Source: a virus
DNA length: 64,000 nucleotides
IMG/VR virus record: IMGVR_UViG_3300023179_009191
Span: 1 to 64,000 of that record
Direction: 5' to 3' (one strand)
Part shown: in pieces, positions 903 to 9,664 of the stretch
Layout: the number at the start of each line of letters is the position of its first letter
Numbering within the stretch: the first letter of the stretch is position 1
Notes under the pieces: generated by a model
Told to the model about the DNA's origin: nothing
What the model saw: only the letters and a program-made list of their open reading frames with translations
Database searches by the model: none
Made by a program: the position numbers and the translations under genes

Positions 903-1424
903 ATGGGAAATAATGGTGACCTGCCTGTGGAGAGCGGTAGAGCTTATACAGGCCGTGTAGTTCCAAGCTTTAATGCTTGGCCATCGCTTAGAGATGAATT
1001 CCTCACACCCTTTGACAGGGTATTTGACAAATTGACCAATGACTTGTTCCCTAGCCTGTCTAAGGAATTTGGTGTTGGACTGTTTGAAAAGGAATCTTAT
1101 CCCAAAGTGGACATTGTGGATCACAAAGACCGTGTCTCTATTGAAGCAGAGATTCCTGGTCTGAAGAAGAATCAAATCACAGTGGACGTCAAGGATGGTG
1201 TGTTAACTATTGCTGGTCAAAAACAAGACAAAAAAGAAGAGACAGAAGAAGGTACTTACGTTCGCAGAGAACTGAAACGTAGCTCATTCCGTCGTTCTTT
1301 TGCTCTTGGTGAAAACCTAGATCATGACAATGTTAAAGCACAATTCCAAGATGGAATCCTGGTCATTGACGTTGCCAAAGTCAAGCCAGTGGAAACTAAA
1401 GCCAAGATCATTGATATCAAATAA
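903..1424 (+). CDS. hsp20: Small heat shock protein (Hsp20/alpha-crystallin family)
   Basis: YPKVDI...AEIPGLKK...DGVLTI.G...RRE...SFRRSFAL...A.FQDGIL.I motifs; GAGGAGG RBS. Confidence 0.95.
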   Translation: MGNNGDLPVESGRAYTGRVVPSFNAWPSLRDEFLTPFDRVFDKLTNDLFPSLSKEFGVGLFEKESYPKVDIVDHKDRVSIEAEIPGLKKNQITVDVKDGVLTIAGQKQDKKEETEEGTYVRRELKRSSFRRSFALGENLDHDNVKAQFQDGILVIDVAKVKPVETKAKIIDIK

Positions 1425-1443: not shown

Positions 1444-1478
1444 AGAACCCGCTAGTATGTCCTGGCGGGTTCTTTTTT
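1444..1478 (+). terminator. Intrinsic terminator after hsp20
   Basis: AGAACCCGCTAG/CTGGCGGGTTCT hairpin followed by a T-tract. Confidence 0.85.
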
Positions 1479-1684: not shown

Positions 1685-1709
1685 AAGCCGCAAATGATGC
1701 GGCTTTTTT
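1685..1709 (+). terminator. Terminator-like hairpin in the leader of the PEP-CTERM operon
   Basis: AAGCCGCA-AATGA-TGCGGCTT then a T run, 12 nt before ATG 1722. Confidence 0.55.
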
Positions 1710-1721
1710 AATGGTCAATTT

Positions 1722-2528
1722 ATGAAAAAACTAATAACAACAATACTATCAATACTAGCAATCAACATTACCGCACATGCAGGTACCATATTAATAGACT
1801 TTGGTACTACAGGGGCAGGGTGGTATGGTGGAGCTTCTGTAGTAGGAGCTGATGCCAGAGGAAATTACTGGAACAGCGTAACCTCTGGCACATACTACCC
1901 CAACCTTGTTGATACCACAGGAGCTGTAACTTCTGTTGGAGGATTTGGGTTCTTGACAGGCATGACATTTAGTAGTTACAACGGGCCTGCAGGGGCCACT
2001 TCCACACCTTTGACGCAAGCACAATTAGATGCTACTGTGTTCACTGCTGATGCAGGAATATTTGGTGTGAAGGAAGTATTAGTTGATTATATTAAAACTG
2101 CCACAAGTATACCCAAAGTTCAATGGGTTGTAAATGGGTTAGATGCTTCATCATTGTACAATATAAAATTTTATGGTTCAGCAAAGTATCAAAATGATTA
2201 TGCCACAAGAATGAATGTTTACAGTGATAATACATTTGCTACTAGTAGCTTGTTAGCTACAACTGTGGCCAACTTCCAGAGCCCCACACAATCTTGGGTA
2301 ATTAATACCACAGACATTGGTGTGTTAAGAAATTTGCCTACAACTGGTTCATTGTATTTTGAAATACAAGGTGCCAATGGAGGTACAGGTTTAATAAACG
2401 CCATGAGCATTGAAACTGTGGCTATTCCTGAACCCACAGTATTAGATATTATCACCCTGCCTTACAAAATTGTAAATTGGTTAAGACCCAAAGGTAATAG
2501 AACCACCTTTTTAGCAGGAGTATATTGA
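1722..2528 (+). CDS. Secreted protein with degenerate PEP-CTERM tail
   Basis: Signal peptide MKKLITTILSILAINITAHA, then ILIDFG; C-terminal AIPEPT followed by a poor TM segment. Confidence 0.75.
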   Translation: MKKLITTILSILAINITAHAGTILIDFGTTGAGWYGGASVVGADARGNYWNSVTSGTYYPNLVDTTGAVTSVGGFGFLTGMTFSSYNGPAGATSTPLTQAQLDATVFTADAGIFGVKEVLVDYIKTATSIPKVQWVVNGLDASSLYNIKFYGSAKYQNDYATRMNVYSDNTFATSSLLATTVANFQSPTQSWVINTTDIGVLRNLPTTGSLYFEIQGANGGTGLINAMSIETVAIPEPTVLDIITLPYKIVNWLRPKGNRTTFLAGVY

Positions 2529-2531
2529 TTT

Positions 2532-4913
2532 ATGAAAAAACTCATAACAACAATACTAGCAGTAATAACAACAGCTGCATGTCATGCAGCACCATTTGGT
2601 CTCTGGATCAATGCAAATACCACAAACAACTACAGCGATTCTTCCAAATGGATTGCTATAAATGGCAGTTTGCCTGGAGGGGTTCCAGGTCCTAGCAATG
2701 ATGCATACATATTTGATGGCACATTATTAGTAGGACCTGGGGGCAATTTTAATCCTCAGCAATTAATCATGGGATGGGAAAACTGGCATGCAGGTGAGTA
2801 CTTGCAAACAGGAGGCACCACAAGAGTTGAGTTCTGGACCACAGTAGGCAAAGCTGGAAATCAGGTATTCAACATGAATGATGGTTCATATTCCACAGGT
2901 GATCTGGCAGTGGGATGGATAAACCCAGTCACTTCTTCTGTAGGCACAGGTGTATTCAATTTGAATGGCGGTACTTTTTCAAGCCGTGCAGCTGTATTTG
3001 TGGGTCTTGAAGGTGCCACTGGAACTGTAAACATCAATGGAGGTACATTAAATTCTACAGGTAATGAGTGGGGTTCATTTAGAATAGCCAATTATGGTAC
3101 TGGCAGTGGTGTGTTGAATTTGGGTGGCACAGGAGTTGTGAATGCTTCTAAATACACTGCTGTGGGAGGCTGGGGAAATGGAGTTTTGAATATCACAGGA
3201 GGCACTTGGAATCAAGTGGCTGGGGGAATTACAGTGGGAGATTTTGCAGATAATAATTGGACAGGCAGAGGAGATGTGAATCAAAATGCAGGAGTGGTTA
3301 ATGCAGATTATGTTTATTTACAAAATGGAACTTACAATTTAAATGGTGGTACATTGAATGTAAATGGAATAGCAGATACATCCAATGTTGCATTGGGTGT
3401 TATGAATCTTAATGGCGGTACTTTGCTTGCTCGTATCAATAGCTCTGATTTTATTCAGGCCAACACAGTGGATATAAAACAGGGCGGGGTCACGGTTAAT
3501 ACTGCTGATAAAGAGATAGTAATTGATAAAGAATTGCAAGGTGTAGGTGGCTTGATAAAAGAAGGAACAGGCACATTAACTTTTAATAAAACCAACACAT
3601 ATGCAGGAACCACTACAATTAATACAGGCACTGTAATAGTGAATTCAAATGGTTCGCTTGCTTCAAGTAACATAGTTGTTTCTGCAGGAACACAGTTCAG
3701 GGTTAACGGGTCTGCAGGTAACATTAATTTGTTAGGCACATTAACTGGTAGCGGCTATGCAGGTTCAGTAATTCTTAATGGAGGAACTGTTTCTCCAGGC
3801 AATAGTCCAGGGCTTTTAACTGTGAATAACCTGGATGCTAGCAATGGTAATTTTGTATTTGAATTAGGAGCTCCCACCACTAGAGGAGGTACTTATGATG
3901 CAATTGATGTTCAACAATTATTAGTTTTAGGTTCAAATACACAATGGAATTTTAGTAATTATAATAATTACATTTTTCAAACAAATGACTCATATGATCT
4001 GTTCAATTGGAACACTCTGGAAGCATCTGCATTTGATTCAAATGTTTTATTAGCCGCACTCCCTGATCTGGATACTGCCAACACAGGATTAGCATGGAGC
4101 GTGAATGCATTTACTGTGGATGGTACCATTTCAGTGATACCTGAACCTAATGCATTAACGTTGTTGATTGCAGGGTTCATATTTTTAGGACTTATGAAAA
4201 CCATAAACAAAACTAAAGCTGGTTTGCTTGCTGCATTGCTGGCCATCTTTAGTCTAAACACCATTAATGCAGAAATTATATTCACAGAAGACTTTGAGGA
4301 TGGTGCATGGACTGGCTTCAGTTCCTACCCTTCAGCAAATACTGCTGTGCTCAACTCTGGTGATACCATATATGGTGCACCTGCCACTGGTGCCCCTGGA
4401 ACTTACATTGTAGCTCCTGGTGGTTCCAAACTGGGTAAAATGTGGCCATTATACTGGTCACCAGGCAATGTGACCACATCCACATTTGTTCTGTATAATG
4501 ACTACTATGCAACACCTGAAACTGGATGGGTGCCTTATTTGCAAGGCAAACAAGTAAAACTATCCATGGATGTGTACATATCCAGTTATGATCCCATGCA
4601 AGCCAGCACTGATGTGAACATATTTGCCAAGTTCTTTAACCAGGACTATTCATACTACTATGATTGGGCATCAGTAATTACTTCTGTCAAAGATACCCTG
4701 CTAGACACATGGGTAACCAGAGAAATAACTGTAACTGTGCCCAATGATGTTTCCATCATACAGTTTGGATTGGAAATGACTCAACAAAATTATAGCTCTG
4801 GAGCTGTTAATGTTGATAACATGGCAATTCAAATAGTACCAGAACCTTCAGCAGGTGCTTTGATAGTAGCTGGTACTGGTTGTTTGGTAGCTCTCAGAAG
4901 GTTCAGAAAATAA
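2532..4913 (+). CDS. PEP-CTERM surface protein with autotransporter-associated beta-strand repeat; tandem fusion carrying two PEP-CTERM signals
   Basis: Signal peptide; Gly-rich beta repeats; GGLIKEGTGTLTFNKTNTYAGTTTINTGT repeat; SPGNSPG; internal VIPEP+TM; terminal VPEPSAGALIVAGTGCLVALRRFRK. Confidence 0.85.
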   Translation: MKKLITTILAVITTAACHAAPFGLWINANTTNNYSDSSKWIAINGSLPGGVPGPSNDAYIFDGTLLVGPGGNFNPQQLIMGWENWHAGEYLQTGGTTRVEFWTTVGKAGNQVFNMNDGSYSTGDLAVGWINPVTSSVGTGVFNLNGGTFSSRAAVFVGLEGATGTVNINGGTLNSTGNEWGSFRIANYGTGSGVLNLGGTGVVNASKYTAVGGWGNGVLNITGGTWNQVAGGITVGDFADNNWTGRGDVNQNAGVVNADYVYLQNGTYNLNGGTLNVNGIADTSNVALGVMNLNGGTLLARINSSDFIQANTVDIKQGGVTVNTADKEIVIDKELQGVGGLIKEGTGTLTFNKTNTYAGTTTINTGTVIVNSNGSLASSNIVVSAGTQFRVNGSAGNINLLGTLTGSGYAGSVILNGGTVSPGNSPGLLTVNNLDASNGNFVFELGAPTTRGGTYDAIDVQQLLVLGSNTQWNFSNYNNYIFQTNDSYDLFNWNTLEASAFDSNVLLAALPDLDTANTGLAWSVNAFTVDGTISVIPEPNALTLLIAGFIFLGLMKTINKTKAGLLAALLAIFSLNTINAEIIFTEDFEDGAWTGFSSYPSANTAVLNSGDTIYGAPATGAPGTYIVAPGGSKLGKMWPLYWSPGNVTTSTFVLYNDYYATPETGWVPYLQGKQVKLSMDVYISSYDPMQASTDVNIFAKFFNQDYSYYYDWASVITSVKDTLLDTWVTREITVTVPNDVSIIQFGLEMTQQNYSSGAVNVDNMAIQIVPEPSAGALIVAGTGCLVALRRFRK

Positions 4914-5834
4914 ATGATAAGAGTTGCACTCTGCATTCTGCTATTTCTGCATGCTAGCATGGTGCAGAGTGCAACCTATCAACTGGTGTGGCAAGATGAA
5001 TTCAATCAATTCACCAGTGGCACTTACAACAGATGGGACGTTGATAGAAATGCATGGAATGTGGAAGTTGTTGATAATCCTAATAACAATGAAATTCAGC
5101 AGTACAGAGATAACAGAGACAATGTAAGAATAGAAGTAGATACTTCCAACACTTCTGATGGTATTCTTGTGTTAGAGGCCAGGAGACAGAACTTCTCTCA
5201 AAACCTGGGAGCATGGACTTCAGGCAGAATCAATACCAAGAACAAAATGGAAATAACTTATGGCAAGGTTGAAGTTTCTGCTAAATTGCCTTCCTTGCCA
5301 GGTAGCTGGCCAGCCATATGGATGCTGGGCAGCAATTATGGCAGTGCAGGATGGCCTGCCAGTGGTGAAATTGATATCATGGAAATGGGACGCAACACAG
5401 GGTGGAACTATATCAACAGCACAGTGCACTGGGAGTATAATGGCCATGCATCATATGGCACTGGAAACAATCAGTCAGGTTCTCCTTTGCTTTTAAATGC
5501 AGCATCCACTTCTTTTCATGTTTATGGCTTAGAATGGGCACCAGATTTTATAAAAACATATGTGGATGGAAATTTGTTATGGGCCATAAGCATGCCAGTA
5601 CCTGGCATAGATCCTTTTGACAATCCTTTCTTTCTTATTCTCAACAATGCCATGGGGGGCGATATTGGTGGAACAGTAGATTCTACAAGCAACATATCTC
5701 GTATGGAAGTGGATTATGTAAAAGTATATCAGTCTGCAGATTATGCCAACACACTTTCTGTTCCTGAACCTAGTACTAACAGTTTATTAATGGCATTTTT
5801 AACGACTGGTTTTATTATTAAAAGGAGATTATGA
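4914..5834 (+). CDS. Glycoside hydrolase family 16 (beta-1,3-glucanase/laminarinase-like) with PEP-CTERM
   Basis: LVWQDEF, WTSGRINTK, WPAIWMLG, catalytic GEIDIME, FHVYGLEW, MEVDYVKVY; C-terminal VPEPS-TM-KRRL. Confidence 0.92.
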   Translation: MIRVALCILLFLHASMVQSATYQLVWQDEFNQFTSGTYNRWDVDRNAWNVEVVDNPNNNEIQQYRDNRDNVRIEVDTSNTSDGILVLEARRQNFSQNLGAWTSGRINTKNKMEITYGKVEVSAKLPSLPGSWPAIWMLGSNYGSAGWPASGEIDIMEMGRNTGWNYINSTVHWEYNGHASYGTGNNQSGSPLLLNAASTSFHVYGLEWAPDFIKTYVDGNLLWAISMPVPGIDPFDNPFFLILNNAMGGDIGGTVDSTSNISRMEVDYVKVYQSADYANTLSVPEPSTNSLLMAFLTTGFIIKRRL

Positions 5835-6283
5835 ATGAGCTTTCAAAGCTTATACAGAAAGCTAGTGTTCTTAATGACCCTGGTGATGCGTATTTTAATA
5901 GTTTCCTTTCTCGCTATAAAATGTATCGTAAGGCAAAAGTTAGAAAACAACAAATCTTGGTGGCTGTTGCGGCCCTAACAGTTGCATGTTTATGCTACAC
6001 ATCTATAAATAATAATGAGCTGGACATACCAACAGCTTCTGGGGTAGACATGACAAATCATTATTTACAACATGGCAAGACAGTGGTTTTTGAAGGTACC
6101 GTGATTGATGTTACTAATTTTATCAAAGAACAGGTTCAACAAAAAACAGAGACATTGAGTTTAAGGGAATATTTTAATGGTGATGATGTGTGGGGTGTAT
6201 ATGTGCCTGGAGAAGAAAAATTCAGATATTATTATCATTGCTTGGGCATGGGAAAATATGAGGTATTTGTTATAAATGAATAG
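5831..6283 (+). CDS. Single-pass membrane protein
   Basis: ATGA overlap with the GH16 gene; basic patch followed by a hydrophobic helix. Confidence 0.65.
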   Translation: MNELSKLIQKASVLNDPGDAYFNSFLSRYKMYRKAKVRKQQILVAVAALTVACLCYTSINNNELDIPTASGVDMTNHYLQHGKTVVFEGTVIDVTNFIKEQVQQKTETLSLREYFNGDDVWGVYVPGEEKFRYYYHCLGMGKYEVFVINE

Positions 6284-6320: not shown

Positions 6321-6677
6321 ATGAAAAAACATTTTTTTGCCATTTTGGTTTTGCCAAGCCTTGTTTGGGGGCAGACTATCTCCAGTGATAGCAAAGAACC
6401 AATGGTTTTAAATTTTGTAAAAAACGATTCAGGAGAAATAGTCTTAAAGCTCAAGGGCCACAAACAGTCCATTGAAATTCAAATCAATGGAGTAAAAATT
6501 GCTTCTTTAAATGAGCAAGATGAAGCAGCCAATTTAACTCAAGCAGGGTTTGAATCAGCAATGCTTGCTCTGGATACCAAGAGTGGATCGTCAGGTTCTA
6601 AAATTGATGCTCAACCCACAGTGCCTCCTGTGGCCCCTGCAGTTTTTTCCAACCCTTTTGCCGCTACTCCTTATTAA
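6321..6677 (+). CDS. Secreted hypothetical protein
   Basis: Signal peptide MKKHFFAILVLPSLVWG; TAAATA upstream. Confidence 0.65.
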   Translation: MKKHFFAILVLPSLVWGQTISSDSKEPMVLNFVKNDSGEIVLKLKGHKQSIEIQINGVKIASLNEQDEAANLTQAGFESAMLALDTKSGSSGSKIDAQPTVPPVAPAVFSNPFAATPY

Positions 6678-7174
6678 TAGCTGTCAATATCTGCAGGTAA
6701 AAATTCCCAATCATCCACAACAAAGCATTTGATTATTTTAATTCCATATGTATCTTCTGCCCAATTTTTAAGTCTTGCATCATATTTGTTTTTATTTCCA
6801 GCAACTCCTACATACATGGTACCATAATTCATATCATAAGCCCATAATTTATTTTTGTATTCAAATATGCAAATAGCATGACCAAAGACTGTGGCAGTTG
6901 TTTTGCCATAAATTTTTATATCATCATTATAATTATAAGTATATCCAAAAATGGATGCATAAATTTTGGGCGTTGTCTCAGATTTTAATGCCAAGCTGGC
7001 TCGGGAAGAGTAAATTAAAGACTCAATAAAACATGAATTGGGAAGTTTTGTATAATCATATGTTATATAAGATCCATTTTTACCTATTTTAAAGCCAGTG
7101 AGCAATGAAGCATACATGGAGGCTAAAAACAAACCCATTATAGCACAATACTTTAAAATGCGTAAAAGCTTCGT
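6674..7174 (-). CDS. Membrane-anchored hypothetical protein (start ACG 7174 or ATG 7138)
   Basis: Open frame with hydrophobic N-terminus; GCTAAATAATTAT directly precedes the in-frame ACG. Confidence 0.6.
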   Translation of the reverse strand, partial: TKLLRILKYCAIMGLFLASMYASLLTGFKIGKNGSYITYDYTKLPNSCFIESLIYSSRASLALKSETTPKIYASIFGYTYNYNDDIKIYGKTTATVFGHAICIFEYKNKLWAYDMNYGTMYVGVAGNKNKYDARLKNWAEDTYGIKIIKCFVVDDWEFLPADIDSY

Positions 7175-8947: not shown

Positions 8948-8977
8948 AATTTGCATAGCTTCATATAATATATTTCT

Positions 8978-9664
8978 ATGGGAATGTTTGATAATGTTAT
9001 TATAGAAGGCTTGAAACTGCCTAAACTACCTGCAGAAATTAATGCTTTTTTAAAAGCCAATGCAGCTGCATTGCCAACAGATTTTCAAACCAAAGATTTG
9101 GACAACACTCTGTCCACTTATACTATCAAAGACAGTGGCCAGATTTATTTGACAGAGCATGTGCCCACAGGCAAGAAAATGCCTTATGAACCTGTGTGGA
9201 AGTCATTTATTGACAACAGAAGCTTCTTGGAGAGACTTTATCACCATGTTAAATTCGGCAGTTACAAAAATAATAGTGAATTGAATTTTGTGGATGAAAG
9301 AAAAGCAGTTCAAACCAAAGTTAAGCTTACAGACACTTTTGATGCTTACATGTACCGTGAAATTGCTGGGCGTTATTTGGAAGCAGAATATGAATTTACA
9401 GCTTCTGAAGGCAAAGTGACAAAGGTTAAATTGCTCAAGGCAGAGCTTGAATCTGAAGCGGTAGCTAAGAAGCGCAAAGCAGATGATGAAGCTTTCAAAG
9501 CCAAGATGGGTGCTTCTTTTGAAGCCAGGAGAAAATTCACTTCTCAATGGTATTATCCTGTGATCAAAGAAATTTACAACCCTGCAGTTTTCTTTTCAAA
9601 ATTATTAATTCAAGCTGCATGCAACAAGATAGTAAGCTGGACATACCGCTGGCATGGCATCTAA
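8978..9664 (+). CDS. Hypothetical phage protein (paralog of 35634-36323)
   Basis: Shares MG[ML]FD.VII, DFQTKDLD and QWYYPVIKE.YNP with the second copy. Confidence 0.8.
   Translation: MGMFDNVIIEGLKLPKLPAEINAFLKANAAALPTDFQTKDLDNTLSTYTIKDSGQIYLTEHVPTGKKMPYEPVWKSFIDNRSFLERLYHHVKFGSYKNNSELNFVDERKAVQTKVKLTDTFDAYMYREIAGRYLEAEYEFTASEGKVTKVKLLKAELESEAVAKKRKADDEAFKAKMGASFEARRKFTSQWYYPVIKEIYNPAVFFSKLLIQAACNKIVSWTYRWHGI

Follow-up and report, generated by a model that had tools for sequence, protein, structure and literature searches.

What would a phage do with exported proteins that carry the C-terminal sorting tags of bacterial surface proteins? This question is raised by nucleotides 1722-5834 of the IMG/VR virus record IMGVR_UViG_3300023179_009191 (G000), a 97.7-kb contig with a CheckV completeness of 43%, the first 64 kb of which form the window analysed here. 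An initial annotation made from the letters had described the region as an operon of three genes for PEP-CTERM surface proteins, one of them a GH16 glucanase. In our analysis the locus belongs to a distant T4-like jumbo phage and forms a hypervariable island of cargo genes between hsp20 and early nuclease genes, and its three open reading frames (ORFs) encode four exported modules: M1 (ORF1), M2 and M3 (both in ORF2) and the GH16 domain (ORF3). We think it fairly likely that these genes constitute a swappable phage cassette of Sec-exported PEP-CTERM proteins, through which an exosortase of the host displays glycan-binding and glycan-cleaving heads on the infected cell. In short, most of the encoded proteins end in a tag whose only known processing enzyme belongs to the host, so that the phage probably alters the outer surface of infected cells.

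In order to characterise the tails, we used the PEP-CTERM models TIGR02595 (curated cut-off 16 bits) and PF07589 (cut-off 20.7). The four (I/V)PEP motifs named in the initial annotation all exist (Table 1), but they fall into three classes, and only two, at the ends of ORF2 and of the GH16, are canonical C-terminal signals. The ORF2 terminus, which is the tail of M3, consists of PEP, a transmembrane helix (TM) and RRFRK and passes TIGR02595 with 22.2 bits in six-frame translation and 23.6 bits as an isolated tail; it scores 17.9 bits within the 239-aa protein starting at ATG 4194 and 15.9 within the entire 793-aa ORF. The GH16 terminus (PEP, TM and KRRL) passes as well, with 17.3 bits six-frame and 19.0 tail-only. 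The internal motif of ORF2 forms a second class, PEP with a 15-residue helix that continues without a stop into MKTINKTK and a signal peptide, and its 15.0 bits fall just under the cut-off. In ORF1, the third class, IPEP is followed by a charged 30-aa tail devoid of a helix, for which TIGR02595 gives no match at E <= 10. With PF07589, ORF2 reaches 18.8 bits and stays under the cut-off. The complete architecture of signal peptide, PEP, helix and Arg/Lys cluster at the extreme C-terminus is thus present in ORF2 and the GH16, while ORF1 fails for want of the helix and the internal ORF2 tail because it is not C-terminal.

The tails are no chance occurrence and are maintained in relatives. A regular expression for PEP, TM and basic cluster returned, beyond these ORFs, a single spurious 67-aa frame in the 97.7-kb record, and in loci from about 80 other phage contigs it gave one spurious match and nothing comparable. 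TIGR02595 was positive in 0 of 14 control genomes, and it finds two tails over the cut-off in each of G000, G001 and G004. Tails are retained in the GH16 variants P0002 (90% identical) and P0003 (73%) and in 6 of 11 close M1 relatives. At the other end of the proteins, the n-h-c pattern of a signal peptide can be read from the sequence at the starts of ORF1-3, in agreement with the initial annotation, and also at the internal module starting at ATG 4194, with small residues at -3/-1 in each case (AHA-G, CHA-A, INA-E for the internal module, and VQS-A).

Among the cargo domains, the enzyme is the clearest. ORF3 is a laminarinase-type GH16 with an intact catalytic motif (PF00722, 63.2 bits against a cut-off of 22) and is predicted to have beta-1,3-glucanase activity: residues E152, D154 and E157 of EIDIME are invariant among its relatives and align with those of the Thermotoga laminarinase 3azx (E 7e-44), and every one of its best relatives of solved structure is a laminarinase or beta-1,3-glucanase. 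GH16 domains are rare among deposited phages, with three GenBank phage records showing any match, phiM9 included. A separate GH16 occurs in the related phage contig L083 (L083:11615-13885), where a 756-aa protein without a signal peptide joins an SGNH/GDSL esterase to a GH16 with intact GEIDIME; its esterase part matches a PHROG tail protein, and it is possibly a virion-borne depolymerase.

The autotransporter-like domain proposed for ORF2 is also borne out. M2 carries a PATR repeat that exceeds the cut-offs of both PF12951 (30.1 bits; cut-off 27) and TIGR02601 (29.1 bits; cut-off 19.85; ORF2 residues 340-371), with six copies of the unit xxNLNGGT recognisable at the DNA level, and is a PATR beta-helix of the kind common in surface proteins of Planctomycetes-Verrucomicrobia-Chlamydiae (PVC) bacteria. 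Its stand-alone homologue P0139 is 78% identical, has an identical signal peptide and ends in a canonical PEP-CTERM. The signal peptide of ORF2 ends in ITTAAC-HA, which fits the permissive PROSITE lipobox, and P0148 has TAGC; judging from these residues, the PATR protein might be lipidated besides being tail-tagged.

Two further domains had been annotated as sugar-binding, a claim that holds at the level of fold for M1 and is weak for M3. M1 belongs to no Pfam family. Its AlphaFold model (pLDDT 74) aligns by VIA-align with the C-terminal carbohydrate-binding module (CBM) of Bacteroides beta-glucuronidases (Z 12.7), the YxiM N-domain (12.2) and the malectin-like domains of FERONIA (12.1); these matches are clearer than those of Foldseek, which are weak throughout (TM-score 0.23-0.42). 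The model suggests a malectin/CBM-like beta-sandwich, for which sugar binding is a reasonable guess. The M3 family is rare, with 16 cluster representatives in 1.8 billion proteins, and the best matches of the M3 model are CBM22-like modules at Z 9-9.7, slightly above background. M3 may be a sandwich of weakly CBM22/CBM4-like type, and the sugar-binding guess is correspondingly weak.

How these modules are joined bears on how the tails would be read. ORF2 joins two secreted modules, each complete in itself. The ATG at 4194 is preceded by AGGA 3 nt upstream, and the n-region that it opens, MKTINKTK, serves at the same time as the basic cluster for the tail before it. M3 is a separate 239-aa gene in the related phage contig L001 (L001:9281-10000), where it overlaps the preceding stop. 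The in-frame junction PEP-TM-MK(T/I)xxKTK-signal peptide recurs in three independent proteins, at 4137-4271 of the window, at L001:8506-8615 and in the database protein P0270, and it could be a self-resolving polyprotein junction or a site of internal initiation. In the fused ORF2 protein, the TM, the Lys-rich basic loop and the next signal peptide would make a topologically consistent helical hairpin with both halves outside; alternatively, M3 may be translated alone by internal initiation at ATG 4194.

The tail of ORF1 is of another kind, a conserved 30-aa sequence that lacks a TM, matches no family and does not constitute a PEP-CTERM signal. A tail of the same type, equal in length and pattern, is found in four M1 relatives and, in L083, on a different cargo. 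A frameshifted PEP-CTERM was considered and rejected, given that the other two frames are full of stops and that length and pattern are conserved in four other proteins. TGA read-through from ORF1 into ORF2, which share a frame, was likewise dropped as a working idea, there being no membrane helix before the junction. After the tail (2436-2535 of the window and L083:9850-9965) comes TGA-TTT-ATG AAA AAA CT, the in-frame start of the next gene's MKKLI signal peptide, and the ORF1-type tail may represent a second kind of junction or sorting tail. The recurrent unit of the locus is thus a conserved signal peptide, a swappable head and a conserved tail, with junctions either of the fused hairpin type or of the alternative-tail-TGA type.

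Comparison between phages shows how freely the heads move. Relative to L001 (IMGVR_UViG_3300012000_000008), the block of M3 and GH16 is 96.7% identical and its flanks 76-84%. The PATR module of the window is absent from L001 and two L001 modules are absent from the window; L001 has a different module fused behind M1 and an extra 314-aa PEP-CTERM gene. Within the window, a 44-nt repeat spans the starts of ORF1 and ORF2. Across the related contigs surveyed, L001, L083 and L085 carry cassette genes beside hsp20, and L004, with an hsp20 that is 88% identical, has no cassette at the same site. Modules pass between related phages by recombination, for which the conserved signal-peptide and tail junctions are the sites. 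What had been called an operon is indeed a series of three abutting plus-strand ORFs, but really a mosaic, with modules that phages exchange.

The record itself is that of a phage. Outside the cassette it encodes a gp23-type capsid protein (69482-70594; PF07068, 294.9 bits), large virion proteins, ribonucleotide reductase, nucleases and two tRNAs; the gp23 is at most 34% identical to any GenBank phage and is uninformative on the host. In G000 the distance of the cassette from the contig end is 1.7-5.8 kb. L001, a contig of 90.7 kb, has this locus in its interior, at about 75-80 kb, flanked upstream by hsp20 and phage-family genes and downstream by the same endonuclease, exonuclease and virion genes. 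In two phage contigs from other samples, L083 (40 kb) and L085 (118 kb, 77% complete), hsp20 and an ORF5-like gene adjoin M1, M3 or PATR-like genes. In relative synonymous codon usage (RSCU) the cassette is correlated with the rest of the phage at r = 0.94 (0.83-0.90 per gene; phage median 0.84) and with the loci of the nearest bacterial relative, a member of the Verrucomicrobiota, at r = -0.50. The GC content at third codon positions is 0.29-0.37 against a phage mean of 0.29, and the observed/expected ratio of CpG 0.13-0.16 against 0.33 +/- 0.18. Pairwise dN/dS is 0.07-0.17 for M1, 0.16 for the GH16 and 0.07-0.25 for M3. The cassette genes are phage-borne, under purifying selection and adapted to the codon usage of the phage; synteny, codon usage and dN/dS therefore make a chimera or a decaying insert very unlikely. 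The AT-rich, low-CpG codons noted at the outset thus do match the phage, and the long residence read from them applies to composition but not to the arrangement of the modules, which is recent and fluid.

The next question is where the processing enzyme would come from. As the initial annotation had noted for the window, no exosortase is found there, and neither the whole record nor six related phage records gave a match to PF09721 or TIGR02602; all seven are incomplete (6-77%), so that absence is not proven. In a set of 185,579 species genomes, the top GH16 relative, by a wide margin, comes from Verrucomicrobia bacterium UBA3063 (53% identical, E 3e-90; next genome 43%), where the GH16 heads a 996-aa multidomain protein and a downstream gene of the same locus has an M3-like domain. 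UBA3063 possesses two exosortases (143.6 and 137.3 bits), at least ten PEP-CTERM matches and several M1 homologues at 33-43% identity. Such M1 homologues occur, at this level of identity, in only 2 of 401 sampled Verrucomicrobiota genomes; other, distant ones are found in Phycisphaerales and have PEP-CTERM tails. The nearest cellular relatives are thus PVC bacteria possessing exosortases, in line with the PVC link that had been suggested, and the modules derive from PVC (Verrucomicrobiota-like) surface proteins. The UBA3063 GH16 protein (L087:1944-4934) and the PATR relatives of about 895 aa (P0140-P0147) share a basic-hydrophobic C-terminus, KMFLRLKSSL or FYRIRLK, that is not PEP-CTERM; this end may, from its sequence, be another C-terminal sorting tag of Verrucomicrobiota.

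On these grounds we propose the following course of events. The proteins would be made during infection and exported by Sec, the PEP-CTERM helix would retain them in the membrane, and the exosortase of the host, needed because none has been found in the phage, would hand them on, so that glycan-binding proteins and a glucanase would end up on the surface or in the slime layer of the infected cell. Export, tail retention, processing and display are steps that we infer. Several observations weigh against this proposal. The full-length GH16 scores 13.9 bits with TIGR02595, under the cut-off, and its tail in L001 reads IPEM instead of IPEP; the internal ORF2 tail has no Arg cluster of its own, and in ORF1 the PEP motif is not followed by a membrane helix. 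Confidence in the M3 model is low (pLDDT 66), the folds that it matches are generic beta-sandwiches, and the promoter class of the cassette is not assignable. Furthermore, UBA3063 has a GC content of 60% against about 37% in the phage, and the identity of its homologues is no more than 33-53%. T4-like cyanophages differ in GC from their hosts by a similar margin, so the gap does not exclude the UBA3063 lineage as host.

Some of these observations would be expected if the tails were inherited baggage that now serves as plain C-terminal anchors, with the proteins tethered to the inner membrane and facing the periplasm, or released there, and no exosortase step at all. Besides the IPEM of L001, this explanation could draw on the other tail that replaces the helix in ORF1 and four relatives, on the sub-threshold internal tail and on the seven incomplete phage records that yielded no exosortase. 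We nevertheless regard it as unlikely. The PEP core, the helix length and the basic cluster have been kept while the proteins diverged to 73% (GH16), 63-84% (M1) and 46-81% (M3) identity, the PEP motif would be needless in a plain anchor, and the closest cellular relatives are exosortase substrates in exosortase-bearing genomes.

A distinctly less probable explanation is that the virion carries these proteins as depolymerases or adhesins, with a role in adsorption rather than on the surface of the infected cell. Phage GH16s do exist, as in the putative laminarinase of phiM9, the SGNH-GH16 protein of L083 has its tail-protein PHROG match, and domains of phage tailspikes and fibres are among the fold matches of M1 and M3, at Z 7-9. 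With their cleavable signal peptides and membrane tails, however, the proteins would be removed from the cytoplasm, where the virions of tailed phages assemble; moreover, none of the cassette proteins matches a PHROG structural family, and the genes stand among early-type genes (hsp20 and nucleases) outside the virion block. That host DNA was misassembled onto the phage contig, or that the cassette is a prophage flank, is hardly credible: the cassette lies less than 6 kb from the contig end, its gene architecture is of bacterial type and its genes have no PHROG structural matches, but a host chimera was rejected on synteny (internal in L001, recurring in L083 and L085, with phage-family genes on both sides) and on codon usage, which matches that of the phage and is anticorrelated with that of the nearest bacterial relatives, and the exact GH16 protein is on record from 5 contigs.

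If a host exosortase does display these heads on the infected cell, two purposes suggest themselves. The first, to which we give somewhat less than even weight, is the editing or masking of a beta-glucan-type surface polymer of the host, which would bring about superinfection exclusion or prevent the trapping of progeny; the second, held a little lower still, is a boost to the uptake of external beta-glucan during infection, and the remaining share is unassigned. The glycan theme of the cassette, together with the L083 SGNH-GH16 protein, with its tail match and without a signal peptide, gives a hint that a host polymer of beta-glucan type is important to these phages; on this account, editing or masking of a surface polymer is slightly preferred to the harvesting of nutrients. 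A bolder and rather doubtful generalisation is that T4-like jumbo phages of PVC bacteria maintain a plug-and-play surface-display locus, in which the junctions would act as recombination handles and sometimes yield self-resolving two-in-one polyproteins, and that the exosortase-displayed heads mask or destroy the phage's own beta-glucan-type receptor or the slime layer. If true, this would be a receptor-destroying system that relies on a sorting pathway for which no link to viruses had been made before.

Even in bacteria, PEP-CTERM/exosortase sorting is still little understood, and the literature describes it as a system of cells. That a lytic-type phage has several selected and frequently exchanged substrates, one of them an enzyme, with no exosortase found, suggests viral use of the pathway to change the surface or exopolysaccharide layer. 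The tail-to-signal-peptide junctions, whether fused, overlapping or provided with an alternative tail, are compact natural test cases for how the signals are read. In addition, tags and closest homologues together point to exosortase-bearing Verrucomicrobiota as a host lead for a phage group without a cultured relative.

The features of the locus and its surroundings are collected in Table 1. The spacing is 3 nt between ORF1 and ORF2 and 0 nt between ORF2 and ORF3, and ORF3 overlaps ORF4 by 4 nt. No convincing sigma-70 or T4-late motif was found upstream of ORF1, and there is no recognisable promoter between the hairpin at 1685-1705 and the ATG. A similar GC-rich hairpin with a T-run precedes the first cassette gene of L085 (~8955-8985), and the distance to the ATG is 16-20 nt across both phages.

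Table 1 Coordinates of the cassette and adjoining features in the window.
Feature	Position	Strand	Description
hsp20	903-1424		upstream of cassette; PF00011, 85.7 bits
Intrinsic-terminator-like hairpin	1444-1473	+	12-bp stem, T-run; closes hsp20 gene
Second hairpin	1685-1705	+	GC-rich, with T-run; 16 nt before ORF1 ATG
ORF1 (module M1)	1722-2528	+	268 aa; signal peptide 1722-1781; IPEP 2424-2435; tail 2436-2525
ORF2	2532-4913	+	793 aa; modules M2 and M3 in one frame
ORF2 module M2	2532-4193	+	signal peptide 2532-2588; PATR repeat 3552-3641; IPEP 4137-4148; 15-aa TM 4149-4193
ORF2 module M3	4194-4913	+	in frame; signal peptide 4194-4271; PEP motif 4836-4847; PEP-CTERM 4836-4910
ORF3 (GH16)	4914-5834	+	306 aa; signal peptide 4914-4970; EIDIME 5367-5384; PEP motif 5760-5771; PEP-CTERM tail 5760-5831
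ORF4	5831-6283	+	150 aa, one TM; start overlaps GH16 stop
ORF5	6321-6677	+	118-aa secreted protein; Pro-rich end NPFAATPY

ORF4 was examined as a candidate phage exosortase and rejected: it scores 17.4 bits with NF046083 (XrtY) against a cut-off of 160, has a single hydrophobic segment and no match to PF09721 or TIGR02602, and its homologue in L082 stands without PEP-CTERM neighbours. An ORF5 homologue adjoins the cassette in all four phage contigs that carry one and is absent from both relatives that do not; Pfam, NCBIfam, PHROGs and the ESM Atlas returned nothing usable on its family or fold. On the minus strand at 6674-7138, a 154-aa protein with an N-terminal hydrophobic segment and no family match adjoins the locus in 6 of 6 related phage contigs, cassette present or not.

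How the cassette compares with known systems can be stated on several levels. A full-text search of the literature turned up no paper devoted to PEP-CTERM proteins of phages; two papers name such domains in passing, within viral or mobile-element gene lists (PMC11003980; 10.64898/2026.09.15.751708). The present locus contributes an enzyme among the cargo, a T4-like jumbo phage as carrier, direct evidence that close relatives exchange modules, junctions of two types and a lead to the host lineage. With the bacterial PEP-CTERM/exosortase system (TIGR02595 and PF07589; PF09721/TIGR02602) the cassette has in common the N-terminal signal peptide, the C-terminal PEP, some 15-20 hydrophobic residues and the basic cluster, scores above cut-off for two of its tails, and PATR beta-helix and CBM-like cargo typical of PVC bacteria. 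It differs in that it sits in the record of a lytic-type T4-like phage in which no exosortase was found, so that the enzyme would be the host's, in that two modules are fused in one frame via a tail-to-signal-peptide junction, and in that one gene, ORF1, has another conserved tail after its PEP.

ORF3 aligns over the full catalytic domain, EIDIME included, with the GH16 laminarinases of Thermotoga maritima (3azx), Rhodothermus (3iln) and Zobellia (LamA/LamC, 4bq1/4crq), at E 7e-44 to 2e-36, but is a minimal catalytic domain set directly on a PEP-CTERM tail, whereas the multidomain protein of UBA3063 lacks such a tail. Sinorhizobium phage phiM9 (~150 kb) likewise encodes a protein annotated as a putative laminarinase of family GH16, yet the two proteins are only 29% identical over 57% of the query. 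As phage proteins exported by host pathways that alter the envelope of the infected cell, the T5 lipoprotein Llp and the T4 superinfection-exclusion proteins Imm and Sp may offer a functional analogy; these use Sec or lipoprotein pathways and block receptors or DNA entry, whereas the proteins described here would rely on a PEP-CTERM tag and carry cargo that is predicted to bind or cleave glycans.

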